Positions 4,383-39,448 are shown, counted from the stretch's first letter. The stretch is DNA of 64,000 bases from an uncultured Thermoplasmatales archaeon (GCA_964517155.1 CAZFAZ010000049.1:3012-67011); one strand, 5' to 3'. The notes: generated by a model not told the origin, from the letters alone. Program-made: numbers and translations.

Positions 4383-4455
4383 ATGTATCTTGTCCCTGAA
4401 AATATTTTAATATAAATTTATTATATAATAATACGTTTAAAAATCTTGTGTTATG

Positions 4456-6057
4456 CTATTTTTTACCTATAAAAATAAACTTCCAGTCCTTTTTTTCTCC
4501 CTCAGAATAAATAATTTCAAAGCCTGAATCCCTAAAAAGTTTTTTCACGCTATCTATTGAATAAGCAGTTTTATAGGCATCAATATGATATTTTGCAATA
4601 TCAAAACCACTTCCTTTAAAAACCATATTTATCCTTATAAGAAATAGTTTAAAACTGGAAAAATCCTTGTTAAGCGCTTCAATTACAAATATGCCATCAG
4701 GTTTTAAAATCCGATATATTTCAGAAAAACCGGTCTTAGGATTAGTCCAATAAGTAAGATTAAAGCGACTAACAACGCAGTCAACAGAACTATCTGTAAG
4801 AGGGATTTTTTCAGCAATACCCCTCTTTGTTTCAATAGATGCGTTCTTCTTTGAAATCTTAAGCATTTCTTCAGACGGATCAATTCCGATAATATGTGCA
4901 TTTGGTACTAATTCATTAATTTCCTTTGATAAAAGACCAGGGCCTACGCCGAGATCAACAATAACTGGTTTTTTGATATCTTCTGAAATATTTTTTTTAA
5001 CAATGCCTGCAAGATAAATATACAATTCCGGAAAACGTTTCATATATTGCTCAAAACGAGAATCTGTATTTTTATCCAGTTTAAAACTAAATAATTTTTT
5101 ACTTTCATAAAAAGTCACAAAACTACCAATTATACTTGGTACAATCCAGATAATTACTATACAAAACAAAGAAAAACTTATAACTTGTTCTGCACTAATA
5201 ACTGCTTCACCAGGTATAATTTTTCCATTTATAAACCTAAAATTAGTAAATAGATAAATTAGAGTAAGATCACGGGTGCCTATACCATAATACGAAATTG
5301 GAATAGCTGCAATTATATCTGCAACAGCCATAATTGCTATAAAAAATACAAACTCTATATTTATATCAAAAAGCTTAGCAATAAAAAACAACATAAAATA
5401 TTTCAAAAACCAACCGGCAATAGATAACCCCAGTGGTGCTAAAACATCTTTAAAACCTGGTAAATCCTCATGAAAAGTATCAATTGAAGATTCAAGTCTG
5501 TCTTTTAAACCAAAAAAAATACGAGATCGCACAATCTTTTTAAAAAGAAAGCGAGATTTATGAGATTTAAAAAAGAATAGATAAACAATAAAAGTAATAA
5601 TAAACACTAATAAGATAATTACAAAAAGATAAGGATAAATACTGCTCAAAATAAGTGCGCCTATGGCACCAGTTATAAGCATTGCAAAAAATTCAACTGT
5701 GTTAAAAATAATAATATTTGAAAAACATTTTGGAAGTGGTGTACTGCTTTCTTCTGCTAGATACAAAGCACGTGTGTAGGCACCAAAACCTCCTGGCGTA
5801 ATAAAACCATAGAAATAACCGATAAAAAAATTTTTAAGGCTATACCAAAAACTAACATTTATTTTTTGTTTTTTAAGAAGAAGCTGCCATTCAACGTTGA
5901 CAAGTAAAAGTAAAGGTACAATGATTAAAAAACTCAAGAAAGCATAAATTGGATTAATATTTACAAAAACTCTAAATATCTTTTCAAAATTTAAATTAAA
6001 TATAATTATAAAAAGTAATATCAGTCCGGCAAGTGGTAACAAGCGTTTTAATTTCAT
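4456..6057 (-). CDS. Fusion protein: N-terminal polytopic membrane domain (UPF0104/flippase-like) plus C-terminal class I SAM-dependent methyltransferase
   Basis: About 8 TM helices in first 330 aa; C-terminal VIVDLGVGPGLL (motif I) ... VDCVVSRF methyltransferase motifs. Confidence 0.6.
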   Translation of the reverse strand: MKLKRLLPLAGLILLFIIIFNLNFEKIFRVFVNINPIYAFLSFLIIVPLLLLVNVEWQLLLKKQKINVSFWYSLKNFFIGYFYGFITPGGFGAYTRALYLAEESSTPLPKCFSNIIIFNTVEFFAMLITGAIGALILSSIYPYLFVIILLVFIITFIVYLFFFKSHKSRFLFKKIVRSRIFFGLKDRLESSIDTFHEDLPGFKDVLAPLGLSIAGWFLKYFMLFFIAKLFDINIEFVFFIAIMAVADIIAAIPISYYGIGTRDLTLIYLFTNFRFINGKIIPGEAVISAEQVISFSLFCIVIIWIVPSIIGSFVTFYESKKLFSFKLDKNTDSRFEQYMKRFPELYIYLAGIVKKNISEDIKKPVIVDLGVGPGLLSKEINELVPNAHIIGIDPSEEMLKISKKNASIETKRGIAEKIPLTDSSVDCVVSRFNLTYWTNPKTGFSEIYRILKPDGIFVIEALNKDFSSFKLFLIRINMVFKGSGFDIAKYHIDAYKTAYSIDSVKKLFRDSGFEIIYSEGEKKDWKFIFIGKK

Positions 6058-6903: not shown

Positions 6904-7896
6904 TTGGAAAAAGAAAAACATGAAACAAGGAAACTTTATGTGATAGACATGTCAGGAGAGGGCATCGGTTTTGGAAAAGTTATATTGTTTAATGAACACT
7001 TTGTAGTATATGGTATACCTGCAATCGTTTCTGCAATTAGTAAGTATACGCGTGCTAAAGTTGAACCTATTGAAAAATCTGGTTGGACTATTGTTGATAA
7101 TCGTAAAGCAACACCTAGTTATAAAGAGGATAAACTTGAGCAGCAGAAAGACTCTATAAATCGTATGATAAAAAAGATGGGTTTAGATTTATCAAAAAAT
7201 GGTGTATCAATAACATTAGAAGGTAATCTTTATGCTGCAAGTGGGATAGGGGCTAGTGCTGCAAGTTGTGTTGCAATCGCAAGAGCTTTATCACAACATT
7301 TTGAGCTTAATTTTTCAAATGATGAGATAAATGAATTTGCTTATGAGGGCGAAAAAGGATATCATGGAACACCTTCAGGTATTGATAACACTGCATCTAC
7401 TTTTGGAGGTCTTATCTGGTTTGAAAAAGCAGAAGAAAAGATAATGGATAAAATTAACCTTCAAAACCCTGTAGAAATCGTTATCGGTAACACTGGTAAA
7501 GTTGCAAATACTACTACTGCTGTTGCAGGCGTAAGAGAGCGTAAGGAGAAATATCCTGAAAGATACAAAGAAATTTTTGATAGAGCTGAAAACATAGCAT
7601 ATCTTGCTCGTGATGCATTTCAGGATGAAGATTATAAAGAGCTTGGTAAACTTATGAATGAGAATCATAAACTTTTACAGCAGATTGAGGTATCTTCTCG
7701 TGAACTTGATTTTCTCGTCAAACTTGCACGGGATCAAGGAGCATATGGTGCAAAACTTACTGGCGGGGGTCTTGGGGGTAACGTAATAGCATTAACGCCT
7801 GGTAAAGATCTTCAGGAAAGAATTGCTAATGCTTTTGAAAAAGAAGGATTCCAATCTCTTAGAACAAGTATTGGAGTTACGCATAGTGGAGAATAA
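6904..7896 (+). CDS. mvk: Mevalonate kinase (GHMP kinase family)
   Basis: GHMP N-terminal region and ATP-binding glycine-rich motif (SGIGASAASCVA), C-terminal LTGGGLGGNVIAL; first gene of mevalonate cluster. Confidence 0.8.
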   Translation: MEKEKHETRKLYVIDMSGEGIGFGKVILFNEHFVVYGIPAIVSAISKYTRAKVEPIEKSGWTIVDNRKATPSYKEDKLEQQKDSINRMIKKMGLDLSKNGVSITLEGNLYAASGIGASAASCVAIARALSQHFELNFSNDEINEFAYEGEKGYHGTPSGIDNTASTFGGLIWFEKAEEKIMDKINLQNPVEIVIGNTGKVANTTTAVAGVRERKEKYPERYKEIFDRAENIAYLARDAFQDEDYKELGKLMNENHKLLQQIEVSSRELDFLVKLARDQGAYGAKLTGGGLGGNVIALTPGKDLQERIANAFEKEGFQSLRTSIGVTHSGE

Positions 7897-7920
7897 AAAA
7901 AAATTTAATGAGGAGTTTTT

Positions 7921-9231
7921 ATGAAACTTCGGCCTTTTCTTTCTAAACTTGAAGCAGATGGTAAACTAACACGCATTAAAAAAGAAGTAAATGTTAAAAA
8001 AGAAATTGCAAATATTATTTATTCTCTTGATGAGAAACCTGTGATTTTTGAAAATGTTAAAGGCTATGATTTTCCTGTTTTTGCAGGTATTACAAGTAAT
8101 CGTGATATAATTGCTCAAGGACTTGATACTACAAAGGATAAACTTTTGCTAAAACTTGTTGATGCACTTAGAAATCCAAAAGAGCCTAAGATTGTTAACA
8201 AAGCTTCTTGTCAGGAGGTAGTTATTAACACTCCTGATTTAGACAAGCTTCCTATCCTGTTTCATCTGGATGGAGACGGCGGTCGTTATGGCTCTGCTAC
8301 TGTTTGTACGATTAAAGACCCTGATTCTGGTAGAAATGTTTCTTATCATCGTCTTATGCAGATTGGGAAAAATAAGTTTACCGCGCGTCTTATTGCAAAA
8401 AGACAGACTAGAAATACTTATGATAAACTTTCTGGTGATCTGGAGATGGCTGTATGTATCGGCAACAGCGTTGCTGTTATGGTTGCAGCAAGCTTGGGTC
8501 CACCCAGTGGTATTGATGAGTTTGCAATAGCAAATGCACTTGATAGAACTGATTTAGTTAAATGTGTGACAAAGGATCTGCAGGTTCCTGCTGACTCAGA
8601 GATAGTCCTTGAGGGCAGGCTTACAAGAAATTTAGCTAAAGAAGGTCCTTTTGTAGATCTTACTGAGACTCGTGATTTTGAGCGTCAGGAGCCAGTTTTT
8701 GTTGTAGATTGCATAACACATAGAAAAGATGCTATGTATCAGGCTCTTATTCCTGGTAGATTTGAACATAAAACACTTATGGGTATGCCAAAGGAACCAA
8801 CTATTTATGATGAAGTAAGTAAGGTTTGCGAGTGTAAAAACGTACTTGTTACAATGGGTGGTGGTAGTTGGCTTCACGGAATAGTTCAGATTAAAAAGAA
8901 GCATGCTGATGATGGTAAAAAAGTAATAGATGCAGCATTTAATGGTCACAAGAGCATGAAGCATGTAATAATCATTGATGAGGATGTTGATATCTACAAT
9001 AGCAATGCTGTCGAATGGGCTATTGCCACGCGTTTTCAGGGTGATAAGGATTTGGTTGTTAAACCTGATCAATCAGGCAGCAGTCTTGATCCTTCATCAA
9101 AGCAGGAGCCTGGTAAAAAAGCATTAACCTGTAAAGTTGGTGTAGATGCAACAATTCCTTTTGATGTTGACGCTAAAAAATATGAAATTGTAAAATACAA
9201 AAAAGTGAATATTGATGATTTCATCAGGTAA
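7921..9231 (+). CDS. UbiD-family decarboxylase, candidate trans-anhydromevalonate-5-phosphate decarboxylase of the archaeal mevalonate pathway
   Basis: UbiD-family length and composition; located between mvk and AcnX-type dehydratase subunits, as in the Aeropyrum-type pathway. Confidence 0.65.
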   Translation: MKLRPFLSKLEADGKLTRIKKEVNVKKEIANIIYSLDEKPVIFENVKGYDFPVFAGITSNRDIIAQGLDTTKDKLLLKLVDALRNPKEPKIVNKASCQEVVINTPDLDKLPILFHLDGDGGRYGSATVCTIKDPDSGRNVSYHRLMQIGKNKFTARLIAKRQTRNTYDKLSGDLEMAVCIGNSVAVMVAASLGPPSGIDEFAIANALDRTDLVKCVTKDLQVPADSEIVLEGRLTRNLAKEGPFVDLTETRDFERQEPVFVVDCITHRKDAMYQALIPGRFEHKTLMGMPKEPTIYDEVSKVCECKNVLVTMGGGSWLHGIVQIKKKHADDGKKVIDAAFNGHKSMKHVIIIDEDVDIYNSNAVEWAIATRFQGDKDLVVKPDQSGSSLDPSSKQEPGKKALTCKVGVDATIPFDVDAKKYEIVKYKKVNIDDFIR

Positions 9232-9532
9232 AGGACGTTATAAGGTTTTTCTTGATAAAAGAAAACTAGGTGATGATTTAATCTATATTCTTGGTGGTGG
9301 TGAAAAATCTCATGTTGGCGGAGCTGTACTCTGTGTTCCTGGAGAAAAACCACATGTTTTAACTTATGAAAATCATCATGACTTTATTGTTTTAACGCCA
9401 ATTGCCGAGGCTGCTTGTAAAAAATATAATAAAACAGTTATTGCAATTGGTGGTATACACATAGATAATGCTGCAAAAGAAGAAATTAATCTTATTGTAA
9501 ATAATTGTAAGGAGTTAGTAAAATGTATTTAA
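9212..9532 (+). CDS. Conserved-looking small protein of unknown function embedded in mevalonate cluster
   Basis: 106-aa ORF overlapping the end of the UbiD-like gene and start of the AcnX large subunit (translational coupling); Gly-rich LIYILGGGEKSHVGGAVL motif; not a UbiX-like flavoprotein. Confidence 0.4.
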   Translation: MMISSGKGRYKVFLDKRKLGDDLIYILGGGEKSHVGGAVLCVPGEKPHVLTYENHHDFIVLTPIAEAACKKYNKTVIAIGGIHIDNAAKEEINLIVNNCKELVKCI

Positions 9533-10707
9533 CAAAAAATGAAGAAAAAATGTTAAATGGTGAAAAAGGTGAAGTACGGGAAAGAATGTTTAGACTCTTA
9601 GTGCGACTCGGCGATATCTATGGTGCTGATAAAATGATACCTGTGGGCTCAGTGCAAGTAGCGGGTGTATCATATAAGTCAATTGGTGATCCCGGCACAG
9701 AATTTCTTGAGGATATGGCTTCAAAAAATGCTAAAGTCAAAGTATTAACCTATCTTAACCCTGCAGGAATGGATTTGGAAAACTGGAAAGAACTGGGTTT
9801 TCCAAAGGATTTTGCAAAAAACCAGCTTAGAATTATGGATGCATTTAAAAAAATGGGAATAGTAATAACAAGTACTTGCACGCCGTATCTTGCAGGAAAT
9901 CTGCCGCGGTTTAGAGAACATATTGCCTGGTCTGAAAGCAGTGCTGTTTCTTTTTCCAACTCTGTAATTGGTGCAAGAACAAATCGTGAAGGAGGTCCTT
10001 CTGCACTTGCTGCAGCAATTTGTGGTGTTACTCCAAATTATGGACTGCATATTTGGGAAAACCGTCAACCAGAAATAAAAATAAAGGTTGATGCAGAGCT
10101 TTTTTTCAATTCTGATTTTGGTGCCCTTGGCTGGTATGTCGGAAAAAAAGTGAAAAACAAAATACCTTATTTTACAGGGTTAAAAGATGCAAATACTGAT
10201 CAGCTTAAAGCACTTGGTGCTGCAATGGCTGCAAGTGGTGCTGTTGCTCTTTATCATGTTGAGGGTCTTACTCCTGAGGCAGATTTAGTAAAATCCAAAG
10301 GACTTGAGACAATAAATGTTGGTAAAAAGGAGCTCAAAGAAACATATGAAAAGTTAAATACTGGTAAAAAACCAGATATCGTAATTTTTGGTTGCCCTCA
10401 TGCATCAATTCGTGAAATATCACAATTAGCAGATATGTTATCAGGAAAGAAATTGAAAAAACCTATCTGGATTTGTACTAGTCGTGTGGTAAAAGAAGCA
10501 GCGGAGCGTATGGGTTATAATAATATTATTTCAAAGGCTGGCGGAAGTGTTGTTGCAGATACTTGTATGGTGGTATCACCTATTGAGGAGATGGGATATA
10601 AAACTACAGGAGTAAATTCTGGAAAGGCTGCTAATTATTTACCTGGTTTTTGTAAGCAAAATGTGTGTTTTGCAAATATTGATGATCTGGTAAAGGAGGC
10701 GTTATAA
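9523..10707 (+). CDS. AcnX-type (DUF521) large subunit, candidate phosphomevalonate dehydratase large subunit
   Basis: About 394 aa, swivel/aconitase-X-like composition with conserved Cys/Ser patches (TSTCTPYLAGN, GGPSALAAAICGVTPNYGLH); followed immediately by small subunit. Confidence 0.7.
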   Translation: MYLTKNEEKMLNGEKGEVRERMFRLLVRLGDIYGADKMIPVGSVQVAGVSYKSIGDPGTEFLEDMASKNAKVKVLTYLNPAGMDLENWKELGFPKDFAKNQLRIMDAFKKMGIVITSTCTPYLAGNLPRFREHIAWSESSAVSFSNSVIGARTNREGGPSALAAAICGVTPNYGLHIWENRQPEIKIKVDAELFFNSDFGALGWYVGKKVKNKIPYFTGLKDANTDQLKALGAAMAASGAVALYHVEGLTPEADLVKSKGLETINVGKKELKETYEKLNTGKKPDIVIFGCPHASIREISQLADMLSGKKLKKPIWICTSRVVKEAAERMGYNNIISKAGGSVVADTCMVVSPIEEMGYKTTGVNSGKAANYLPGFCKQNVCFANIDDLVKEAL

Positions 10708-11094
10708 ATGAAAGGACGAACAATTTCACCTGGGAAAGTTCAAGGAACTGCTATTATTTCTCCTGATCCAATTGGTTTTTATGGGGGGATTGATGCTAAA
10801 ACTGGTATTGTAATTGAGAAAGGTCATCCTCTGGAGGGTAAAAAAATTACAGGTAAAATACTTGTTTTTCCTTGTGGTAAAGGTTCAACTGTGGGTTCTT
10901 ATGTTATTTATGGTCTTGCAAAAAATGGTGTGGCGCCTTTAGGAATTATTAATAAAGAAACTGAAACAATTGTTGCAACTGGTGTGATTCTTGCAGGTAT
11001 TCCTTGTGTTGATAAGATTGATATTTCAAAGATTAAAACAGGTGATACTCTAGTTCTTGATGCAACTAAGGGAATTGTTGATATTAAAAAATAG
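10708..11094 (+). CDS. AcnX-type (DUF126) small subunit, candidate phosphomevalonate dehydratase small subunit
   Basis: 128 aa; GGIDAKTG ... FPCGKGSTVGSYVIYGLAKNGVAPLGII motif typical of aconitase-X swivel subunit; start codon abuts stop of large subunit. Confidence 0.7.
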   Translation: MKGRTISPGKVQGTAIISPDPIGFYGGIDAKTGIVIEKGHPLEGKKITGKILVFPCGKGSTVGSYVIYGLAKNGVAPLGIINKETETIVATGVILAGIPCVDKIDISKIKTGDTLVLDATKGIVDIKK

Positions 11095-11101
11095 TTTTTT
11101 T

Positions 11102-12559
11102 TTAGTGTCTCATATTCCATATGGTTCCAATGCCGTTTATTGTTACTTTGTGATCTCCGTAGTCATCAGACCAGGTAATTGTGCCAGTTGCAGTATTTCT
11201 CCCTATTCTCATGCTAACTGGTGAGATTTTTTTCCAGGTGTTATCTAAAACGTTTTCTGCTTTGAGATTGAGGTCAAGTTTTATATTGTAGCTGTTTAGA
11301 AGTACTTGTGTTAAGCTAGTAGTTGCTTTAATTTCTGTTTCGATAGGCATTTTTAAAAGCAGTAATACATCATTTGATTGTAATATTTTAACATTTACAT
11401 CCTCTAAAATAGTTATTTTTCTGCCTTGGTCTGTTGTTATAATCAAATTTGTAAGGATGTTTGTATCTGATTCTTTAGTAGATCTTAGTTGAGATGATAA
11501 ATAATATTTGCTGTAGTATATATTCCAGCCATTATCTATTGTTATTTGGCACCAGTCCCATCCTCTGATTAGAACCTTTGATAGTATTGTACCTGATGAC
11601 CAGGTGTGTTCGTGATGTCCTGTTCCTTCTACATTATATGAGGTGTCATCTATTTTTACAGTTCCGCTGACTTCACATCCGAAAAATACATAGCTTGCTA
11701 TTTTTGCTTTTGAGTTATCTATAATGCGGTTGTTATGTGTCCAGTATCCCGAGGAAGGTGCAAAAAACTGTAAATCAACTAATAGTTTATGGTTGTTAGC
11801 ATCTATGTTGTCTCCTTCTATATGTAGATGCCAATTTGGAAATCTTCCTTGTACGTAGGAATCTTCAAATGAAACTCTGAATCCTGAATCTGAGCTGGTT
11901 GCTTGTAACACGGGATCTTTTAATATTGCATAGGGTCCAAGTATTGGTCTGTCTCTTTCAGAAACTCCTCCGTATCTTTCTCCCTGTGGGCTGGTTAAGA
12001 CAACAAATAAAATATCTGGTTTAGTCCAGCCTAAATCATTGCGTGCCATGTAGTTAAAGCTGACTGATAACGTCCAACCTGGTAGTTGTGAGTCACTTGA
12101 AAAAACAACTGAGTAGTACCACCATTCTCTATTTACTAGTAGGTCTTTGTAGTGTTCACCTTCATCTTTTGGATTAATAGTTCTACCTGATGGAAGTGTA
12201 ATGCTTGCAGGTAATGTTATGTTAGGTGTAAATGTCCAACTGCCAAGTGTTTCACCTGTTGGATTAAAAATAATTGTTATAGTTCCTTTGCATTCTTTTA
12301 TTTCATCACCGATAACAACTTTTGGCCCTAGTAGACTTCTGTCAGCATCTCCATCTATTATAATATCTCTCCAGAAAACTTCGGAATCAACATCATTGAC
12401 TTTTAAGATTTTTTGTGCGTCGTCTTGTATAAAGTCAATTTTTGGTGTTTTTGGTTCATATGGTGGTTTTACATATCCTACATTAAATAATACTATTCCT
12501 GCTATGATTATCAGGATTACGACGATTATTACATCAATTTTTTTAATTTTAGGATTCAT
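11102..12559 (-). CDS. Membrane-anchored (N-terminal TM) extracellular protein of unknown function
   Basis: Single N-terminal TM helix then 440 aa hydrophilic beta-rich domain; no recognisable catalytic motifs. Confidence 0.45.
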   Translation of the reverse strand: MNPKIKKIDVIIVVILIIIAGIVLFNVGYVKPPYEPKTPKIDFIQDDAQKILKVNDVDSEVFWRDIIIDGDADRSLLGPKVVIGDEIKECKGTITIIFNPTGETLGSWTFTPNITLPASITLPSGRTINPKDEGEHYKDLLVNREWWYYSVVFSSDSQLPGWTLSVSFNYMARNDLGWTKPDILFVVLTSPQGERYGGVSERDRPILGPYAILKDPVLQATSSDSGFRVSFEDSYVQGRFPNWHLHIEGDNIDANNHKLLVDLQFFAPSSGYWTHNNRIIDNSKAKIASYVFFGCEVSGTVKIDDTSYNVEGTGHHEHTWSSGTILSKVLIRGWDWCQITIDNGWNIYYSKYYLSSQLRSTKESDTNILTNLIITTDQGRKITILEDVNVKILQSNDVLLLLKMPIETEIKATTSLTQVLLNSYNIKLDLNLKAENVLDNTWKKISPVSMRIGRNTATGTITWSDDYGDHKVTINGIGTIWNMRH

Positions 12560-13066
12560 TACTCACCAGCATATTTTTATTCTTATTTAAATATTTATAA
12601 GTTTTTATTATTAAATGTTTCTTTACAAATGTTATCAAAAACTCAGTTTTGGTGTTTTTTCGCATATGTATACATTTTTTTTAAGATTGTTAAATATCGT
12701 TTTTTTTGAATTAAAAGTTGTTATTGCTGTAAATGTTTTATCAGTATTTTTTTTATTTGAATTGTGTTTCTTTAATGTATCTGGTGTACGATCTGCACAA
12801 ACATTTACATATTCATCTGCGAAAAATGCACTTAAAGCCCAAATTGATTATATCGTTTTAAAGAAGGAAATGGGAAGGGATGAAGTCCGATATTTTCGTT
12901 TTTTAATGAAAATACCCATCCAATTACCCCCTCTAAATCACCTCTTCTCCCTTTCCTATCTTATTTTTCTCTTTTAAAAAATATTTTCATTATGTAATAA
13001 TTTCACCAAATATTTAAATAGTATGAAATACAGAGTATAACATAGGAAAAGGTGGTGAATAAAAAA

Positions 13067-13177
13067 ATGAAAATCGTCAGTGAAGTAAGAACCCAACAAG
13101 AATTTGACGAAATGAAAGCTATAATGGAAGTTTTCGTTGTAAACAACAGGGTTCGTCAGCTTGCTGGTATGGCATAA
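13067..13177 (+). CDS. Possible small protein (36 aa) MKIVSEVRTQQEFDEMKAIMEVFVVNNRVRQLAGMA
   Basis: Below ORF-track cutoff; strong SD-like AGGTGGTGA 8 nt upstream of ATG; locally less AT-rich than surrounding 770-bp noncoding region. Confidence 0.25.
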   Translation: MKIVSEVRTQQEFDEMKAIMEVFVVNNRVRQLAGMA

Positions 13178-13335
13178 ACACAAAGATTTTACCTTTTTGT
13201 AAAAACTTTTATTATTTTGATAAATATTTTAATTTTATTAAGCGATAAAGCGATATTCTAAAATCAATTACATTATAATGGCAATCTTAATAATAGTCTT
13301 TTAGATTACAATCAACCATTTGGGGGGTTACTTAA

Positions 13336-13860
13336 ATGGTTGAAAAAAAAGATATCATAAACATTTTTTCAGAAGAACTAAGTTGGATAGATGACAAAAA
13401 ACTAAAAGAACAAGTAATAAATGTCTGGAAAACTGCATCAGATAAAGGCGGTTGGAAAACACTAGATAAAGTACCATTTACTCTTCTTTTTGGAAACTCA
13501 GGTAAACTTACCGATCATACAAAGCGTGTCACTAATCTTGCAAAAGCAGTGTTTGACAAACGTGAAGAAAAACTAAATAAAGATTTTCTTATAGCCGGTG
13601 CTCTTCTTCATGATGTAGGAAAACTACTTGAATACAAAGTAAAAGATAAAAAAGTAGTTGTTGGATCTTATGGTAAAAAGTTTCGCCATCCTGTATCAGG
13701 CGCACTTCTCGCACAACAACTAGGTCTTCCCGATGAAGTAGTCTTAATTATTTATGCTCACAGTCATGAAGGTGATAAATGTGAGCGTACTGCTGAAAGT
13801 TTTATTGTTCATCATTGTGATTTTATAGATTTTCATATCAAAAAAAGTATGGTGAAATAA
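13336..13860 (+). CDS. HD-domain phosphohydrolase
   Basis: H...HD motif (LLHDVGK) and downstream His/Asp residues; first gene of a 4-gene plus-strand operon. Confidence 0.6.
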   Translation: MVEKKDIINIFSEELSWIDDKKLKEQVINVWKTASDKGGWKTLDKVPFTLLFGNSGKLTDHTKRVTNLAKAVFDKREEKLNKDFLIAGALLHDVGKLLEYKVKDKKVVVGSYGKKFRHPVSGALLAQQLGLPDEVVLIIYAHSHEGDKCERTAESFIVHHCDFIDFHIKKSMVK

Positions 13861-13864
13861 GAAT

Positions 13865-15355
13865 ATGAAGAAAAAAAATGCTGCTAATCGATTTATAGAG
13901 ACAGAAATTTCAGGTAGAAAATTCAAGCCTTTTGCAGGTGGTAAAAAATACAATCGCAATTCAAAGGTTATTAAAAATTTATCAGAGGCGCTCAAAAAAT
14001 CTGGTCTTAAAAACGGTATGACTGTTTCTTTTCATCATCAACTTCGTAATGGTGATTTTGTAATTAATCAGGCTCTGGAATCAATAAAAGATTTAGGTGT
14101 CAAAGATATATGTATGGCACAAACTGCTTTGTTTGATGTTCACAAACCACTAATTGATTATATAAAAGACGGAACAGTAACTCGCATTGAAGGAAGTGTC
14201 AACGGGTCTGTTGGGGATTTTATATCAAAAAATAATCCTTTGAAAGCACCAGTGATACTTCGTTCGCATGGTGGCCGTTGGTCTGCTGTCAAAAAAGGAG
14301 AACTTCATCCTGATATAGCAGTAATTGCTGCATCATCAGCAGATATTCGTGGTAATTCTACAGGAATGCTTGGAAAAAGCTCTTTTGGAAATATTGCTTA
14401 TTCACAGGTTGATGCATGGCATGCAGATAAAGTAATAATTGTAACAGATAACCTTGTTACATACCCTTGCCCCTTCAGAGAAATCTATGAAGGTTTTGTA
14501 GACTATGTTGTAGAGGTAGACAGAATTGGTGATCCCGAAAAAATAGTAAGCGGCTCATTAAAAATTACTGATGACCCTGAGAAACTAGGAATTGGAAAAC
14601 GCTGTGTCGATTTAATGGATGCCGTGGGAATCATAAAAAACGATATGGTTTTTCAGGCAGGTGCTGGTGGTATTTCTCTGGCGGCATTAAAGTATCTGGG
14701 TGAAAGATTAAAAGAAAAAAACATAGTTGCAGGATGCTCCACAGGAGGCTTGACAGAATTTATTGTTGATATGTACAATAAAGGCATACTAAAACAGGTA
14801 AATACCTGCCAGTGTTTTGATACCGTTGCTGTGGATTTTGTAAAAAATCATCTGGAGACAACATCAACAATTGGAGAGTATTCTGATCCCACTATGAAAG
14901 GACGAAATACTGATCTTTTAGATACAGTAATACTTGGTGGTACAGAAGTAGATACAAGTTTTAATGTAAATGTAAATACACATAGTGATGGTCGTATGCT
15001 TCATGGTATCGGTGGTCATCAAGATGTATCTGCAGCTGCAAATCTTACAATTATTACAGTGCCGGTTTACAGGAAGACAAATCCTATTGTCCTTGAAAAA
15101 GTCACAACTGTTTCAACACCAGGAGATGTAATTGATGCGATTGTTACAGACAAAGGCATTGCAATTAATCCAAAAAGAAAAGATTTGCTAAAACTTGTTA
15201 AAGGAAAAATTGATATCGTAGATATATCTGATTTAAAGAAAATAGCATATGATGCAACAGGCGGTCCTCAGGAGCCTAATTTAGGAAAAGATATAATTGG
15301 TATGACTAAATATTTTGATGGAACAGTTCTTGATAATATTTATCAAGTTTTATAA
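13865..15355 (+). CDS. Citrate lyase alpha-subunit-like (CitF family) CoA-transferase
   Basis: Close match to CitF hallmarks: GMTVSFHHQLRNGDFV, HKPLIDYIKDGTVTRI, SHGGR, TGGLTEF; about 496 aa. Confidence 0.75.
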   Translation: MKKKNAANRFIETEISGRKFKPFAGGKKYNRNSKVIKNLSEALKKSGLKNGMTVSFHHQLRNGDFVINQALESIKDLGVKDICMAQTALFDVHKPLIDYIKDGTVTRIEGSVNGSVGDFISKNNPLKAPVILRSHGGRWSAVKKGELHPDIAVIAASSADIRGNSTGMLGKSSFGNIAYSQVDAWHADKVIIVTDNLVTYPCPFREIYEGFVDYVVEVDRIGDPEKIVSGSLKITDDPEKLGIGKRCVDLMDAVGIIKNDMVFQAGAGGISLAALKYLGERLKEKNIVAGCSTGGLTEFIVDMYNKGILKQVNTCQCFDTVAVDFVKNHLETTSTIGEYSDPTMKGRNTDLLDTVILGGTEVDTSFNVNVNTHSDGRMLHGIGGHQDVSAAANLTIITVPVYRKTNPIVLEKVTTVSTPGDVIDAIVTDKGIAINPKRKDLLKLVKGKIDIVDISDLKKIAYDATGGPQEPNLGKDIIGMTKYFDGTVLDNIYQVL

Positions 15356-16141
15356 GTGAGGTTTGAAAAAATGCAATGGAAAACAAAAATAACAAAAGTA
15401 GAACCAAATCATCTGGTAACAAAAGGTTATCGTCAGGAGGATTTGATTGGAAATATACCTTTTTCACATGTTGTATATTTACTTCTGAGAGATGAGATTC
15501 CGACAAAAGAGCATGGTAAGATGATGGATGCAATACTTACTGCTTGTGTCGATCACGGAGTAACACCACCCACTGCAATGGCATCCCGTATCGTTGCCTC
15601 AGGAGGAGTACCGCTTCCAACGGCGGTTGCAGCAGGAATACTTAGTATAGGTGATGCACATGGTGGAGCGATTGAAAAAGGTGCAAAGTTTTTACAAGAT
15701 GGAATTGCAAGAATGAAAAAAGAAGAAAAAACAATGCAGGAAATTACAATAACTTTGGTTAAAGAATCAATTGAGCAGAAAAAACGCATACTTGGTTTTG
15801 GTCACAGAGTTCATACTTCTGATCCACGTACAAAAAAACTATTTTCTCTTGCAGATGAATTAAAAATCTCTAAAGAACATATTATGCTTTCAAAAGCAAT
15901 TGAAAAGGAACTTGAAAAACAAACTGGTAAGAAACTGCCAATAAATGTAGATGGTGCAATTGCCGCAATCAGCTCAGATATGGGTTTTGACTGGCGGCTT
16001 GGTAAAGCATTTTTCTTAATCGGTCGTGTCGCAGGGCTTACTGCTCATGTTTATGAAGAGCAAACAGAGTTTAAACCTATGCGCAAAATGTTTATAGCAG
16101 ATGTAGAATATAATGGGCCTTCTGAGAAGGATTTATTTTAG
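15356..16141 (+). CDS. Short citrate-synthase-family protein (citryl-CoA lyase-like)
   Basis: 261 aa, truncated relative to citrate synthase, contains GFGHRVHTSDPR (citrate synthase catalytic His motif) and VAAGILSIGDAHGGA. Confidence 0.65.
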   Translation: MRFEKMQWKTKITKVEPNHLVTKGYRQEDLIGNIPFSHVVYLLLRDEIPTKEHGKMMDAILTACVDHGVTPPTAMASRIVASGGVPLPTAVAAGILSIGDAHGGAIEKGAKFLQDGIARMKKEEKTMQEITITLVKESIEQKKRILGFGHRVHTSDPRTKKLFSLADELKISKEHIMLSKAIEKELEKQTGKKLPINVDGAIAAISSDMGFDWRLGKAFFLIGRVAGLTAHVYEEQTEFKPMRKMFIADVEYNGPSEKDLF

Positions 16142-16154
16142 GTGATAACTTATT

Positions 16155-17912
16155 ATGGGAAAAACAATTATTCAGAAAATTTTTGAGAATCATTCAAATC
16201 AGGAAGCAAAAGTAGGCGAAATAATTGATATAGATATCGATGTTCGTATCGCTCGTGATTTTGGCGGTGCAAACGTTGTAAAAAATCTAGAAGAAAATAA
16301 TTTATCTGTTGATAACTCTGAGAAAACTTTTTTCACTTTTGATTGTAACCCTGGCGGTTGTGATCAAAAATATGCTGCGAATCAGCATATCTGCCGTCAG
16401 TTTGCTCGTCGTAACAAAATAAAAGTTTTTGATATAAACGTTGGAATTGGTACTCATCTGGTAATTGATGAAAGTATTGCAAAACCCGGCAGCACTATTG
16501 TTTCAACTGATTCTCATGCAAATATTTTGGGTGCAATTGGTGCCTTTGGTCAGGGTATGGGTGATAATGATATTGCTCATGCTTGGGCTTATGGTAAAGT
16601 CTGGTTTAAGGTGCCTGCATCATTAAAGATTATTCTTAAAGGAAAACCTTCAAAAGATGCAACGCCCAAGGATGTAGTTTTAAAGCTTCTTCAGGATTTT
16701 GGAGCAAATGGTCTTCTTGGTTATTCTGCAGAGATATATGGAGAATATGCAGAAGATCTTTCAGTTGATGGAAAGATTACTATTGCTTCTATGGCAACTG
16801 AAATGGGTGCAATAATCATTTTATTCCCGACAAAAGACTTTACTGCAGATCCTGATGCAGACTATGAAAAAACTGTTCAAGTCGATATCAAAGGTCTTAA
16901 ACCAATGATTTCAAGACCTGGTCATCCTGAGGATGTAGTAAGAGTTGATGATGTAAAGCAGACAAAAGTTGATTCTGGTTTTATTGGGAGTTGTACGAAT
17001 GGTCGTATGGATGACATGCGCGCTGTTGCAAATATTTTAAAAGGTAAAAAAGTCGCCCCTGATCGTGTTTTAAAAATAGTTCCTGCTACTGATAAAATTT
17101 GGAAAAATTGTCTGGATGAAGGTATTATTAAGATTTTCAAAGATGCCGGAGCACTAGTTGGTTCTGCGGGTTGTGCTGGTTGTGCGGCAGGGCAAATCGG
17201 ACAGACTGGCTCTGGAGAAATAGCAGTATCTTCTGGTAATCGTAATTTTGTTGGTAAACAAGGTAAAGGACAAATTTATCTGGCTAGTCCTGAAACTGTT
17301 GTAGCATCTCTTGTTGCAGGTTATATTACAACTGTGGACTTTATTCCTGATAAACCTGAAAAAGTGTTTGTTTTAAAGAGTAAATTATTTAAATCAAAAG
17401 ATGTTGGTAAAAATCCTAATGCTCCTTTGAAAGTTACAGGTCGTGCATGGGTCATTAAAAAAGATAACATCGACACAGATATGATTTTTCATAATAGGTA
17501 TCTTGCTATTACGGATATCTCTGAGATGGGTCAGTATACTTTTGATAATCTTGAGGGTTACAAAGATTTTGCAAAAAAGGCAAAACCTGACGATATAGTA
17601 GTTGTGGGTAAGAATTTTGGTGCTGGTAGTTCTCGTCAGCAAGCAGTTGATTGTTTTAAAGCACTTGGTATAAGTGTTATTATTGCTGAGAGTTTTGGCG
17701 CAATTTATGAGCGCAATGCAATAAATAATGCGATGCCCATTATGATTGCAGAAGGAATTGTTGATAAAATAAAAGATAAAGATGAGATTGCCGTTAATTT
17801 TGAAACCGGAGAAATATTTGATAAAACTCAGAATAAAAAAATAAAAGCTAAGCCTTTTTCAAAATCTCAGATGGATATATACAAAAGAGGTGGGTTGTTA
17901 AACAACCCATAA
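16155..17912 (+). CDS. Aconitase-family dehydratase, fused large (LeuC-like) and small (LeuD-like) subunits
   Basis: N-terminus MGKTIIQKIF like LeuC/HACN; Fe-S Cys ligands (GSCTNGRMDD, GCAGCAAGQ); C-terminal LeuD-like GKNFGAGSSRQQAVDCFKALGISVIIAESFGAIYERNAINNAMP. Confidence 0.75.
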   Translation: MGKTIIQKIFENHSNQEAKVGEIIDIDIDVRIARDFGGANVVKNLEENNLSVDNSEKTFFTFDCNPGGCDQKYAANQHICRQFARRNKIKVFDINVGIGTHLVIDESIAKPGSTIVSTDSHANILGAIGAFGQGMGDNDIAHAWAYGKVWFKVPASLKIILKGKPSKDATPKDVVLKLLQDFGANGLLGYSAEIYGEYAEDLSVDGKITIASMATEMGAIIILFPTKDFTADPDADYEKTVQVDIKGLKPMISRPGHPEDVVRVDDVKQTKVDSGFIGSCTNGRMDDMRAVANILKGKKVAPDRVLKIVPATDKIWKNCLDEGIIKIFKDAGALVGSAGCAGCAAGQIGQTGSGEIAVSSGNRNFVGKQGKGQIYLASPETVVASLVAGYITTVDFIPDKPEKVFVLKSKLFKSKDVGKNPNAPLKVTGRAWVIKKDNIDTDMIFHNRYLAITDISEMGQYTFDNLEGYKDFAKKAKPDDIVVVGKNFGAGSSRQQAVDCFKALGISVIIAESFGAIYERNAINNAMPIMIAEGIVDKIKDKDEIAVNFETGEIFDKTQNKKIKAKPFSKSQMDIYKRGGLLNNP

Positions 17913-19190
17913 TTATTTTTTGAACCTTTTCATCCATTTAAAACTTGTAGCACCTGTTATGATTTTATCTGTTTTAAACACCCATACTACTATTGCAATC
18001 ATGACAAGTGCAAAGATGCTTACATATATTATCCCAGCAAAAACCATTAGATAATCGCCAAAGAGTAAAGCTCTTGGTGCCATCATAGGATGACTAAAAG
18101 GTATTCCAAATAGTATTGCTCTAAGCGCAAGAGGTAGTGTATCAAAATCTTTAAACATGGTCATAAACATTGGAACAAGTACTAGTACTGCTACAGGAAA
18201 AGTAAGTGTCTGTGCACTTTTAAAATTCTTTGCCATTGTCCCAAGGAGCATGCATAGAGCAAGTGCTGCAACAAGGCTTACAAAAACAACAACTCCTATA
18301 AGTATCATATCTAGTCCACTAAGGCTTAAATCAAAAGATGCAGCACCACTTGTTGCACCTTGAAATTGAAAACTTGCAAGATAACTACCCATGCCAAGCA
18401 TATATATTACTGCAAGAATAAGTCCTACAATTGCTGCGGCAATGATTTTTCCTGCAACAATACTTGAGCGTTTTACAGGCAGCGTCAAAAGCGTCTCAAG
18501 TGTTTTATTTTCTTTTTCAAGAGCCATGGAAGATATTACGATTTGTCCTGCCATCATTATTATCATCATCATAATTATCGGGATAAATGTTGACTGCTGA
18601 GATAAAACACTTGCAATCTGACTTGGAGAAATCCCATTTAATTCTTTTTCTTTAAAGTATGTAGTCTCATTTCTTTTAGTTGGATTTAGTGCCAACGTAG
18701 AGTTAATCGAGCCGTTGCTTTGGCTGATAAGCTCTTTGGTAATATCTGTATTAACTATGCTTATAATTCTTTCAACCACTGAAGAAGAAATTGAATCAAG
18801 TATTCCTGCACCTTTCATAACCCAATAAATTTCAAATGTTGCTGTTTTACCATTTTCTATGTCTGAAGAAAAATTTTTATTTATAACTAAAAGTGCAGTG
18901 CCTTCTTTTTCTTTTAAAGTATTTACTGCATCTTCTTTATCGTTTAAATTTTGAGAGTAAAAAGTTACGCTTGCTGTCTGATTAAAAACATTTGTAGCGA
19001 TTTCTGAAAATCTGCCGCTATCTAAATCTATAACTGCTATTTCAGGGGGTTCCTGAAGCTCATCTTCTATTTCACCAATAGTTCCGCCCATTGAACCAAA
19101 AATTATTGCCATGATAATAATTGGTAAAAACGTTGCAGGTGTCATTAGTTCTTTTAATTCTTTTGTGATAATGTTTCCTAGTGCACTCAA
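17913..19190 (-). CDS. ABC-2 type transporter permease
   Basis: N-terminal TM, large extracytoplasmic loop, then 5-6 C-terminal TM helices; translationally coupled to upstream ABC ATPase. Confidence 0.65.
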   Translation of the reverse strand: MSALGNIITKELKELMTPATFLPIIIMAIIFGSMGGTIGEIEDELQEPPEIAVIDLDSGRFSEIATNVFNQTASVTFYSQNLNDKEDAVNTLKEKEGTALLVINKNFSSDIENGKTATFEIYWVMKGAGILDSISSSVVERIISIVNTDITKELISQSNGSINSTLALNPTKRNETTYFKEKELNGISPSQIASVLSQQSTFIPIIMMMIIMMAGQIVISSMALEKENKTLETLLTLPVKRSSIVAGKIIAAAIVGLILAVIYMLGMGSYLASFQFQGATSGAASFDLSLSGLDMILIGVVVFVSLVAALALCMLLGTMAKNFKSAQTLTFPVAVLVLVPMFMTMFKDFDTLPLALRAILFGIPFSHPMMAPRALLFGDYLMVFAGIIYVSIFALVMIAIVVWVFKTDKIITGATSFKWMKRFKK

Positions 19191-19903
19191 TTTTTCACCA
19201 CCTTTATGAATACCTCTTCAATGTTTTTTGCGTTATATTTTTTCATAAGTTCTTGTGGTTTTCCTTCTTCTACTATAATGCCATTGTCAATAAGTGCGAT
19301 TCTATCACATAAATATTCTACTTCCAGCATATTATGCGAACTTAGTAAAACAGTTGTACCATTTTTTGCGGTATTTTTAATGATATTTCTTATCTCTTGG
19401 GCATTATTTACATCAAGACCACTAGTTGGTTCATCAAGTATTGCAAATTTAGGCTCCGTCATAAGAGCTCTACCTACTAAAAGTCTTCTTTTCATACCTT
19501 TGCTGTAGGTATCTACTTTATCGTTTATGCGTTCCTTTAAATCTGATATCTCTATGCCTTTTTCTGCAATTTTTTTTGCTTTTTCAGATTCATAAAAATT
19601 AGCAATAAATTCAAGATATGCTTTGCCTGTTAGATTCTTATATGCCCCTGCATCTTCAGGCAGATAACTTATCATTTTTCTAATAATCTCAGGTTTTTCT
19701 TCTAGATTAATTCCCATGATCATTATTTTTCCAGATGTTATAGTAATCAAAGTTGAAATAATGCGCAAAGTTGTAGTTTTTCCTGCGCCATTAGGTCCTA
19801 TAAGTCCAAATATTTCTCCTTGATTTATATTAAAATTAATCCCTTTTACGGCTTTTAATTCTCCATAGTTTTTAACTAGATTTTTTACTTCAACTGCGGC
19901 CAT
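19187..19903 (-). CDS. ABC transporter ATP-binding protein
   Basis: Walker A GPNGAGKTT, ABC signature YSKGMKRRL, Walker B ILDEPTSGLD, H-loop. Confidence 0.85.
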   Translation of the reverse strand: MAAVEVKNLVKNYGELKAVKGINFNINQGEIFGLIGPNGAGKTTTLRIISTLITITSGKIMIMGINLEEKPEIIRKMISYLPEDAGAYKNLTGKAYLEFIANFYESEKAKKIAEKGIEISDLKERINDKVDTYSKGMKRRLLVGRALMTEPKFAILDEPTSGLDVNNAQEIRNIIKNTAKNGTTVLLSSHNMLEVEYLCDRIALIDNGIIVEEGKPQELMKKYNAKNIEEVFIKVVKN

Positions 19904-19925
19904 ATATCTCTCCTCATAAATATTT

Positions 19926-20240
19926 TTAATATGTTTTTACAGCGGTTCCAAAAGCAATTAGTTCTGCTGCTCCTTGCATTGTTTGTGCTGTTGCATAACG
20001 CATGCCAATTATTGCATCAGCACCTATTTTTTCTGCATCGGCAATCATTCGTTGCATTGCAGTTCTGCGTGATTCTTCCATAAGTTCTGTATATGATTTT
20101 GATTCCCCGCCGATAAGGTTTCTTCCAGCGGCTCTTAAATCTTTACCTATATGTTTCATTTGTACACAGCAGCCAAATACGACACCAAGGACTTCTTTTA
20201 CCTCACGACCAGGTATATTTTCTGTTGTTATAACCATCAT
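19926..20240 (-). CDS. YbjQ/DUF74 family protein (UPF0145)
   Basis: 104 aa; pattern ITTENIPGREVKEVLGVV ... IGADAIIGMRY ... AFGTAV typical of YbjQ family. Confidence 0.7.
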   Translation of the reverse strand: MMVITTENIPGREVKEVLGVVFGCCVQMKHIGKDLRAAGRNLIGGESKSYTELMEESRRTAMQRMIADAEKIGADAIIGMRYATAQTMQGAAELIAFGTAVKTY

Positions 20241-20262
20241 ATATTTATCCCTTCAACGTTTT

Positions 20263-20478
20263 TTATTTATAAATATATCCACATTTACTACAACTATATG
20301 TTTTTCCATCAAATCTAAGTTTTGGATTACCACACTCTGGACAAGTCCCAAGTACTCTTTCTTCCAGAGCACGTATTCTTTTAAGCTCTTTTTCTGCAAG
20401 CTGGGATAAGTTGATCCAAGGGTTTTTTTTCCACCATTCCCAGGTTTCTTCATCAAGTGTTATCGTTACTTTTTTCAT
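20263..20478 (-). CDS. Small ribbon-helix-helix-like protein with C-terminal C4 zinc ribbon
   Basis: N-terminus KKVTITLDEETWEWWKKNPWINLSQLAEKELKRI (beta-strand/helix/helix, paralogous to two other RHH ORFs in window); C-terminal CPECG...CSKCG. Confidence 0.5.
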   Translation of the reverse strand: MKKVTITLDEETWEWWKKNPWINLSQLAEKELKRIRALEERVLGTCPECGNPKLRFDGKTYSCSKCGYIYK

Positions 20479-20483
20479 ATTTT

Positions 20484-20678
20484 TTATCCTGTTGGTATTT
20501 CAACTATTAAACCAACTAATATCAATATGATTCCAATTATTAGTGCAATAATTGCTTTTAATCTTGGTCCCCCAGGTGCATTAATTATTCTTGCAAATCC
20601 GGGCATAAAAAATGCTAGTATTCCGATTACTGCGGTTATTGCTCCTGTAATTATAAAAACTGTATTTACAACTGTCAT
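20484..20678 (-). CDS. Small two-TM membrane protein
   Basis: 64 aa, two hydrophobic helices; sits between the two YbjQ genes on same strand. Confidence 0.4.
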   Translation of the reverse strand: MTVVNTVFIITGAITAVIGILAFFMPGFARIINAPGGPRLKAIIALIIGIILILVGLIVEIPTG

Positions 20679-20686
20679 AATAAGCC

Positions 20687-21001
20687 TTATTTTAGTTTAA
20701 CTGCTGTCCCGTATGCAAGTATCTCTGCAGCTCCACCCATTATTGCACTGGTCATGAAACGTACGTTTATTACCGCATCAGCACCTATTTCTTCTGCTTT
20801 TTTCTGCATGCGACTTAATGCAATTTCTCTGGACTCTGCAAGCATTTCTGTGTATTCTTTTATTTCTCCCCCTGCCATATGTCTGAAACCTGCTTTTATG
20901 TCTTTTCCAATGCTTTTTGCCTGTATTGTGTTTCCTCTCACTAGACCTAATATTTCTTTTATTTCCTTTCCTGTTACAAAATCTGTATTTACAATTATCA
21001 T
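20687..21001 (-). CDS. YbjQ/DUF74 family protein (second paralog)
   Basis: 104 aa; same architecture as 19926-20240 paralog (IVNTDFVTGKEIKEILGLV ... IGADAVINVRF ... AYGTAV). Confidence 0.7.
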   Translation of the reverse strand: MIIVNTDFVTGKEIKEILGLVRGNTIQAKSIGKDIKAGFRHMAGGEIKEYTEMLAESREIALSRMQKKAEEIGADAVINVRFMTSAIMGGAAEILAYGTAVKLK

Positions 21002-39093: not shown

Positions 39094-39094
39094 T

Positions 39095-39445: not shown

Positions 39446-39448
39446 AAT

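Follow-up and report, generated by a model that had tools for sequence, protein, structure and literature searches.

How might a cell cleave citrate with a homolog of the citrate lyase α subunit and no acyl carrier protein (ACP)? The question is raised by a 64,000-nucleotide stretch of DNA from an uncultured Thermoplasmatales archaeon (GCA_964517155.1, CAZFAZ010000049.1:3012-67011; the whole stretch is hereafter called the window). The open reading frame (ORF) listing of the window contains four co-directional genes on the + strand, spanning positions 13336-17912, which encode an HD-domain hydrolase, a CitF-family CoA-transferase, a short citryl-CoA lyase (CCL) and a fused aconitase-family hydro-lyase. 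Here, we propose, with rather more confidence than doubt, that this cassette specifies a two-enzyme citrate lyase, made up of CitF and CCL and needing neither ACP nor ATP, plus two conserved companions. The best reading of its sequence is as a hybrid of two known citrate-cleaving systems. An ACP-independent citrate lyase had been suggested in an initial annotation of the locus, and the suggestion is supported by the adjacency of CitF and CCL in three lineages, by the replacement of a ligase by CitF at the same position in related clusters, and by the separate grouping of the CCL-linked CitFs. The four genes are as follows.

13336 to 13860, + strand: metal-dependent hydrolase of the HD-domain (HDIG) type, 174 aa, opening the cassette
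13865 to 15355, + strand: CitF-family (class II) CoA-transferase, 496 aa, matching PF04223 and 1xr4 and, just under its cut-off, TIGR01584
15371 to 16141, + strand: citryl-CoA lyase with a short citrate-synthase fold, 256 aa; alternative GTG start at 15356 (261 aa)
16155 to 17912, + strand: fused LeuC-LeuD aconitase-family [4Fe-4S] hydro-lyase, 585 aa

Order and strand agree with the initial annotation, but its gaps of 4, 0 and 13 nt do not hold. The CCL gene most probably starts at ATG 15371, behind a GTGAGGT motif, and a length of 256 aa is also given by public gene calls and by orthologs in databases; with this start the spacers are 4, 15 and 13 nt. A Shine-Dalgarno-like GGTG/GGGG motif lies 6-10 nt 5′ of every cassette gene. 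The window is taken to be archaeal because it carries an archaeal signal recognition particle RNA, and its relatives are metagenome-assembled genomes (MAGs) from hydrothermal and mud sediments that carry the labels Thermoplasmatota or Thermoplasmatales.

CitF and CCL as candidate partners

Two scans provide the comparison. A scan of species-representative genomes (GTDB) yielded 13 Thermoplasmatota loci (L001-L013), and a metagenome scan, seeded by an alignment of the window CCL, its most distant archaeal ortholog and the Hydrogenobacter thermophilus enzyme 6hxp, yielded 80 loci with CCL identities between 47% and 87%. All four genes recur in unchanged order in L001-L013, L022 and L023-L055, which amounts to about 50 loci from uncultured Thermoplasmatota; CitF identity is as low as 61% in the genome-scan loci, and about 33 of the metagenome loci carry the cassette. 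We call a locus fully flanked if at least 2.5 kb is present on both sides of CCL. Among fully flanked loci of the close clade, CitF and HD are each found in 15 of 15 and the hydro-lyase in 13 of 15. The synteny search proposed at the outset thus indicates that the arrangement is not due to chance.

CitF aligns with nearly the whole of PF04223 (443 bits, profile positions 2-466 of 466) and with the citrate lyase α chains solved by structural genomics (1xr4, 361 bits; 2hj0, 351 bits), in line with its first assignment. Pfam scans of about 50 ORFs over the 64 kb found, around the cassette, housekeeping and mevalonate-pathway genes only. Among these ORFs there was no CitD, CitE (HpcH_HpaI, PF03328), CitC, CitX or CitG domain, and bacterial CitD and CitE used as tblastn queries found no match in the window; here, too, the initial annotation was right. 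Nor did the scanned ORFs include a citryl-CoA synthetase (CCS), succinyl-CoA synthetase (SCS), ATP-citrate lyase (ACL), citrate synthase or isocitrate dehydrogenase, or any protein with an ATP-grasp_2, Ligase_CoA or CoA_binding domain. As a positive control, six of six bacterial CitF loci (L014-L017, L019, L020) have citD (PF06857) and citE (PF03328) directly upstream, whereas tblastn detected neither gene within ±8 kb at any archaeal locus, and three bacterial CitDs, like the bacterial CitE queries, had no match in the window, L001-L013 or L023-L102. The citD-citE pair therefore precedes CitF in all bacterial controls and in none of about 55 CCL-linked loci. Since neither the window nor these loci yielded genes for an ACP, CitE or the prosthetic group, CitF would have to use free CoA thioesters, and we propose that it is an acetyl-CoA:citrate CoA-transferase of that kind. 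The isolated α subunit of citrate lyase is said to accept free acetyl-CoA. Class II CoA-transferases comprise the acetyl-CoA:citrate and acetyl-CoA:citramalate enzymes, and with them CoA passes between the substrates in a ternary complex, no covalent enzyme intermediate being formed (PMC8085960; PMC9196870). Window CitF is 38-42% identical to citDE-linked bacterial CitFs, and a neighbor-joining tree, in which the deep branching order is not robust, places the CCL-linked CitFs apart from the citDE-linked ones and 1xr4.

The second enzyme of the pair scores 300 bits with the CCL models NF004866 and NF004869, above their cut-offs of 245 and 212, and 250 bits with 6hxp, to which it is 49% identical in a MAFFT alignment. 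Citrate synthase models of NCBIfam reach no more than 104 bits (cut-offs 332-594), any citrate synthase structure no more than 70 bits, and the Pfam citrate synthase match is confined to profile positions 162-355 of 357. With 256 aa, as against about 370 aa or more for a full-length citrate synthase, the protein falls outside that family, and the alternative that it is a bona fide short citrate synthase is not supported, the corresponding models lying far below their cut-offs. The initial description as a short citryl-CoA-lyase-like enzyme stands, with 256 rather than 261 aa. Residues H97 (AHGGA), H145 (GFGHRVH), R153 (DPR), D194 (NVDG) and R219 (GRVAG) are invariant with 6hxp; in the citrate-synthase fold, catalysis and the binding of oxaloacetate are defined by these positions. 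The match to the CCL module of ACL (6qcl/6hxn) is about 66 bits.

Linkage of CitF to CCL extends beyond the four-gene cassette. In L057, CitF and CCL lie on one strand, with CitF 50% identical to that of the window, and in L070, L075, L077 and L088 a divergent CitF (44-45% identical) is followed by a TrmB-family regulator and then CCL-HD(-Iso_dh). Together with the window's own lineage, this makes three separate lineages. In three further loci (L061, L064, L065; CCL 58-62% identical) the order is HD-[ATP-grasp ligase β, CoA-ligase α]-CCL-LeuC-LeuD, which is the window's gene order with a two-subunit ligase of the succinyl/citryl-CoA synthetase type in the CitF slot. A bacterial group (L083, L084, L091, L097, L098, L100-L102) has the order ligase β-ligase α-CCL-HD-LeuC-LeuD-Iso_dh-LeuC′-LeuD′. 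Taken together, the ligase-type and CitF-type loci imply that CCL is repeatedly paired with an enzyme that makes an acyl-CoA from a free acid, and the slot replacement suggests that CitF has displaced the SCS/CCS-type ligase of related CCL clusters.

The ligase β of the bacterial clusters (L097, 5377-7083; L101, 2691-4253; also L098 and L100) has the citrate-binding domain of ACL (PF16114) and lacks the usual Ligase_CoA domain. It ends in a redox-looking 4Fe-4S dicluster domain, which is unusual for a succinyl- or citryl-CoA synthetase. Neither a 2-oxoacid:ferredoxin oxidoreductase nor other genes of the reverse tricarboxylic acid (rTCA) cycle flank the ligase-type clusters; their flanks hold peptidases, repeat proteins, TsaB/RimI and, in L064/L065, an aminotransferase.

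Given the chemistry of the CitF class and the conserved CCL residues, the simplest cycle is CitF followed by CCL. CitF would convert free acetyl-CoA and citrate to (3S)-citryl-CoA and acetate; CCL, as its 6hxp match and catalytic residues suggest, would then split citryl-CoA into oxaloacetate and acetyl-CoA, the latter returning to the first step. The net reaction would be citrate to oxaloacetate plus acetate. Gene context alone suggests that the fused hydro-lyase would supply the citrate from isocitrate or cis-aconitate.

Two conserved companions

The HD protein matches PF01966 at 45.8 bits and the HDIG model TIGR00277 at 51.6 bits, and it has the H...HD...D metal-binding signature of HD phosphohydrolases. 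Members of the CitF-type and the ligase-type clusters can be aligned over their full length and share PFTLL, H61, HD(92-93)xGK, RHPxSG, HSxEG and DFxxF. The HD metal site is complete, with additional histidines, and is compatible with a binuclear center. Among fully flanked loci, an HD gene lies beside CCL in 24 of 24 that have CitF or a ligase and in 0 of 12 lacking both (Fisher's exact ~1e-9 at face value, although the loci are related and their independence is thereby overstated). In bacterial clusters of other gene order, HD orthologs that are 37-49% identical remain beside CCL. The initial annotation placed an HD phosphohydrolase ahead of the operon; the family assignment holds, and by its gene neighborhoods the protein is more than a neighbor, namely an integral, near-obligate partner of CCL and its activating enzyme, in distant clusters too. 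Its fold neighbors are generic nucleotide hydrolases, and it probably acts on a nucleotide-like substrate. Conceivably, its target is the nucleotide moiety of CoA or dephospho-CoA, or it carries out a metal-dependent reaction on oxaloacetate.

One CitF-CCL locus, L057, has no HD gene. The next gene there (3469-4800) encodes a fusion of OMP-decarboxylase/HUMPS and RraA-like domains, followed by a PHP-domain protein. The RraA-like family includes oxaloacetate decarboxylases, so the fusion in the HD slot may hint, as a single case, at what the HD protein does.

The last gene of the cassette fuses a LeuC-like part (residues 1-393) to a LeuD-like part (426-583), which match Aconitase (PF00330, 256 bits) and Aconitase_C (PF00694, 63 bits). 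Its best model is PRK00402 (371 bits, cut-off 385), and it passes only the broad subfamily LEUD_arch (140 bits, cut-off 109). Aconitase models (PRK07229, 295 against 612; AcnA and AcnB, at most 113), HacA_Meth (279 against 550) and isopropylmalate isomerase (IPMI) models (LEU2, 299 against 611; leud, 127 against 246) all fall short. These scores, none of which reaches an equivalog cut-off, place it in the archaeal LeuCD/HacAB branch. The best matches in the PDB are 4kp2 (236 bits), 4kp1 (213 bits) and, for the LeuD-like domain, 3vba (123 bits), all subunits of Methanocaldococcus jannaschii homoaconitase (HACN) or isopropylmalate/citramalate isomerase. Three cluster cysteines in GSCTNGR (278-284) and GCAGC (339-343) and the catalytic GSSR (491-494, within GAGSSRQ 489-495) mark it as a genuine Fe-S hydro-lyase. 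Its specificity is expected to depend on one loop:

17472 to 17516, + strand: substrate-specificity loop of the LeuD-like domain, DTDMIFHNRYLAITD, aligned with 3vba, 2pkp and 1v7l

Where homoaconitase 2pkp reads YL-R-T-T (GPYLRTT) and the IPMI 3vba reads ARYLVYT, the window enzyme reads YL-A-I-T. The CCL-linked subfamily shares the signature DTDxI[FY]HN.[YFH]L[ASH]IT, with A, S or H instead of arginine at the position of HACN Arg26 and a conserved His-Asn in place of the preceding Pro-Gly. The loop arginine of homoaconitase reportedly binds the γ-carboxylate. Thus, of the fused aconitase first annotated, the fused LeuC-LeuD Fe-S hydro-lyase is confirmed, and the aconitase is not established, given scores below cut-off and the missing γ-carboxylate arginine.

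Gene context points to citrate and isocitrate. No leuA or leuB lies near the gene, which is linked instead to CCL and, in other clusters, to an Iso_dh-family dehydrogenase. Beside CCL, the hydro-lyase occurs in 22 of 24 fully flanked loci with CitF or a ligase, as against 3 of 12 with neither. Only the Thermoplasmatota clade has the two parts fused; in bacterial ligase-type clusters the orthologs are the second, split LeuC′/LeuD′ pair, 45-49% identical (44-55% in the tblastn hits) and with the same loop signature. Our best guess from context is a citrate/cis-aconitate/isocitrate isomerase, to which the loop lends no support. In the bacterial clusters L083, L097, L101 and L102 (for example L101, 6549-11236), two LeuC/LeuD pairs flank the Iso_dh-family dehydrogenase, which falls below all cut-offs for isocitrate, isopropylmalate and homoisocitrate dehydrogenases. 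The small-subunit loops of the two pairs differ (PGKYTYSV versus HNAFLHIT), and there may be a division of labor between the hydro-lyases.

Direction, substrate and alternatives

Several points weigh against a CitF-CCL citrate lyase of the kind proposed. CitF scores 482 bits with the citF equivalog TIGR01584, under its cut-off of 501. The comparator ligases match solved SCS structures at 247-254 bits and Hydrogenobacter CCS at only 131; because they are closer to SCS, a CCS identity is something we infer from PF16114 and gene position, and an L065-type ligase could be a true SCS. The label SCS/CCS-like is therefore kept for them. Neither CitF nor a ligase is found at 12 of 21 distant fully flanked CCL loci, which implies that CCL homologs serve other contexts or pathways too. 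The loop of the hydro-lyase has Ala-Ile where homoaconitase has Arg-Thr, and in this respect resembles an isopropylmalate/citramalate isomerase. The loci are phylogenetically related, so that all counts overstate independence, and inspection of the genome covered 64 kb.

Quite different neighborhoods, without CitF, ligase, HD or hydro-lyase, surround roughly half of the distant CCL homologs (47-53% identity), including those in L068, L069, L079, L080, L085, L087, L092, L095 and L099.

For citrate to oxaloacetate plus acetate, our own estimate from standard transformed formation energies is K ~0.4 M, or about -15 kJ/mol at 1 mM each. With this K, cleavage is strongly favored under physiological conditions and net synthesis would need sub-micromolar citrate, so cleavage is likely the direction in the cell. 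The product would be acetate, not acetyl-CoA, so the cassette could not replace ACL in an autotrophic rTCA cycle and would be more like a fermentative citrate lyase. A window ORF encodes a secreted papain-type peptidase. In an anaerobic peptide fermenter, 2-oxoglutarate derived from glutamate might be reductively carboxylated to isocitrate and then converted by the cassette to oxaloacetate and acetate, a route that would bypass the thermodynamically difficult oxidation of succinate. Such a fermentative role in glutamate use is plausible.

It is also conceivable, if unlikely, that the cassette runs anabolically, as a thioester-conserving citrate synthase: CCL would condense oxaloacetate with acetyl-CoA, CitF would pass the CoA to acetate, and the citrate would feed the hydro-lyase and an isocitrate dehydrogenase elsewhere in the genome for glutamate synthesis. 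Iso_dh in ligase-type clusters and the aminotransferase of L064/L065 resemble a branch forming 2-oxoglutarate and glutamate, and ACL is said to run in reverse in Desulfobacter. The CCL reaction, moreover, is near equilibrium (-2.1 ± 3.9 kJ/mol; PMC13147460). Against this, the window cassette contains no dehydrogenase or aminotransferase gene, and a secreted peptidase suits a surplus of amino acids rather than a demand. Making citrate from oxaloacetate and acetate has, by our own estimate, K ~2.5 per M, about +15 kJ/mol at 1 mM each, and the synthesis or reverse citrate synthase option raised at first is therefore thermodynamically unattractive for a CoA-transferase route.

Somewhat less probable still is a substrate other than citrate, such as citramalate or another alkyl-substituted 2-hydroxy acid. 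The enzymes would then be a citramalate CoA-transferase, a citramalyl-CoA lyase and a citramalate/citraconate (or mesaconate) hydro-lyase, working for instance in glutamate or isoleucine metabolism. The CitF family does hold a citramalate CoA-transferase (PMC8085960), and the window member lies under the citF equivalog cut-off; the hydrophobic LeuD loop, too, is as in the M. jannaschii isopropylmalate/citramalate isomerase, whose 3vba is the best PDB match for the domain. On the other side, CCL is 49% identical to a biochemically defined citryl-CoA lyase and keeps the arginines of DPR and GR..G that bind oxaloacetate carboxylates. To our knowledge, the characterized enzymes of the citrate-synthase fold all use oxaloacetate. 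Furthermore, a Si-type condensation would be expected to yield (S)-citramalyl-CoA, whereas IPMI-type enzymes take (R)-citramalate, and no gene for glutamate mutase, methylaspartase, CimA or LeuB is present among the scanned window ORFs.

We regard as similarly improbable the view that CCL works with an ATP-dependent CCS, or CitF with CitD and CitE, encoded elsewhere, adjacency reflecting shared regulation only. Homologs of AclA, CcsA and CcsB have been reported from some Thermoprofundales MAGs (PMC11287216), and the 64-kb extent of the inspection would leave room for such partners. However, CitF-CCL adjacency is kept in three lineages, with 15-nt spacing in the window, CitF sits exactly in the ligase position of sister clusters, and the citD-citE pair that precedes CitF in every bacterial control does so at none of the CCL-linked loci. 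Least probable of all is that the hydro-lyase, the HD protein or both are passengers in the transcription unit, such as a leucine-pathway IPMI (in the JGI annotation the fusion is called 3-isopropylmalate/(R)-2-methylmalate dehydratase, and its loop is IPMI-like) or a housekeeping nucleotidase (as the HD fold neighbors would allow), for their orthologs still adjoin CCL in bacterial clusters of different order, both co-occur with the partner enzymes as counted above, and the HN..L.IT loop signature is confined to the CCL-linked subfamily.

Surroundings and comparison with known systems

Two further features bound the cassette, and a convergent ABC-2 permease gene abuts its 3′ end at the hairpin.

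13179 to 13335, + strand: AT-rich intergenic stretch 5′ of the HD gene, the presumed cassette promoter
17892 to 17925, + strand: terminator-like hairpin GGGTTGTT/AACAACCC, spanning the last stop codon and followed by a T-run; a terminator function would fit

Some 160 nt 5′ of the HD gene lies a conserved small ORF (13068-13178, +; JGI 13055-13177) of 36-40 aa, MKIVSEVRTQQEFDEMKAIMEVFVVNNRVRQLAGMA, with a Shine-Dalgarno-like GGTGGTGA. In 17 related Thermoplasmatota loci an intact copy occupies the corresponding position, with 50-77% identity and conservative substitutions. Its product belongs to no assigned family and might act as a regulator or form an unrecognized subunit of the cassette. The 120-aa ORF at 12615-12977 (+) shows only weak conservation and might not be a true gene. 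Its neighbor, on the opposite strand at 11102-12559, encodes a protein of 485 aa that matches nothing in Pfam or NCBIfam; this protein is 44-52% identical in 24 related loci, and its gene always lies between those for the AcnX small subunit and HD. Beyond it is the mevalonate cluster (6904-11094, +): GHMP (mevalonate) kinase, UbiD-family decarboxylase and the large and small AcnX subunits. This is the archaeal type, with the anhydromevalonate phosphate route, rather than the Thermoplasma type, in a Thermoplasmatota lineage. A functional tie of the cassette to these genes was rejected as a working idea: the opposite-strand gene stands between them, CCL keeps the arginine for the oxaloacetate α-carboxylate, which makes hydroxymethylglutaryl-CoA an unlikely substrate, and distant CCL clusters have no mevalonate genes.

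Convergent with the cassette, 17913-21001 (-) holds an ABC-2 permease and ATPase and then two YbjQ-family (PF01906) genes, a block kept downstream of the cassette in several relatives (L001, L010, L011, L022). At 38023-43612 (-), a Mrp/Mnh antiporter-like set (MnhB, MnhE, MnhG, Proton_antipo_M) adjoins a NuoH-like NADHdh subunit; by its domains, this set resembles a membrane-bound hydrogenase or an Mbx-type ion-translocating module. At 47866-52755 (+), a TTG codon opens a very large ORF of 1629 aa.

Full-text literature searches found no description of a CitF plus CCL pair or of a CCL-linked HD protein; the matches concerned lone CitE (Mycobacterium tuberculosis, Cenarchaeum), ACL or CCS/CCL. 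Two surveys, one of genomes (2026) and one of MAGs (2022), treat ACL, CCS/CCL and reversed citrate synthase as the only citrate-cleaving options (PMC13147460; PMC9802188), and the archaeal literature that the searches found deals with lone CitE, not lone CitF (PMC1403158). Homology searches with CitF and CCL returned hundreds of distinct sequences, and those with CitF, CCL and HD were filled by close orthologs bearing automatic names only; the public names are "citrate lyase subunit alpha", "citrate synthase", "3-isopropylmalate dehydratase large subunit" and "nucleotidyltransferase with HDIG domain".

Citrate cleavage is the diagnostic step when reverse-TCA carbon fixation and citrate fermentation are inferred from genomes, and current surveys know it in no forms other than ACL, CCS/CCL, reversed citrate synthase and CitDEF. 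A CitF-CCL hybrid would be mis-scored, its CCL as rTCA or "citrate synthase" and its lone CitF as an incomplete citrate lyase, and this would distort metabolic modeling for Thermoplasmatota that abound in both marine and lake sediments. If the proposal is true, a citrate lyase α subunit would be physiologically functional without a carrier protein; ligase and transferase would be evolutionary alternatives for the activation step of CCL-based cleavage; the textbook picture would lack a conserved HD enzyme; and a fermentative route from glutamate to oxaloacetate and acetate, without succinate oxidation, would be suggested. More tentatively, and with our confidence falling a little short of even, we suggest that the pairing of a free-CoA class II transferase with a citrate-synthase-fold lyase is a third solution to citrate cleavage, widespread in abundant sediment Thermoplasmatota, that it has a dedicated, non-canonical LeuCD-type aconitase, and that the HD protein is essential to all CCL-based systems, ATP-dependent ones included.

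Finally, the cassette can be set beside the systems it resembles. With the CitDEF citrate lyase (EC 4.1.3.6) it shares a CitF-family class II CoA-transferase and, by prediction, the net reaction. CitDEF, however, has an ACP, an HpcH-fold CitE and the prosthetic-group genes CitC, CitX and CitG, none of which was found in the window or at the approximately 55 loci, and the second half-reaction of the cassette is assigned to a citrate-synthase-fold lyase unrelated to CitE. The CCS/CCL system of the rTCA cycle in H. thermophilus and Leptospirillum has the same short CCL and the same two-step logic through free citryl-CoA; there, ligation is ATP-dependent and the product is acetyl-CoA, whereas the cassette would transfer CoA from acetyl-CoA, release net acetate and form no acetyl-CoA autotrophically. 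ACL (ACLY) contains a CCL module homologous to the cassette CCL, but in the window no ATP-grasp/CoA-ligase module is fused to this protein or lies beside it, and dependence on ATP is not predicted. The citramalate lyase of Clostridium tetanomorphum (EC 4.1.3.22) is the other system with a class II α subunit and would fit the hydrophobic loop of the hydro-lyase, yet it is an ACP complex with a CitE-type β subunit, while the cassette lyase retains the oxaloacetate-binding arginines. Lastly, the IPMI (MJ0499/MJ1277) and homoaconitase (MJ1003/MJ1271) of M. jannaschii have fold, Fe-S ligands and GSSR in common with the fused hydro-lyase, which differs from LeuCD and HacAB in its fused subunits, its HN..L[ASH]IT loop and its linkage to CCL instead of leuA/leuB or aksA/aksF.

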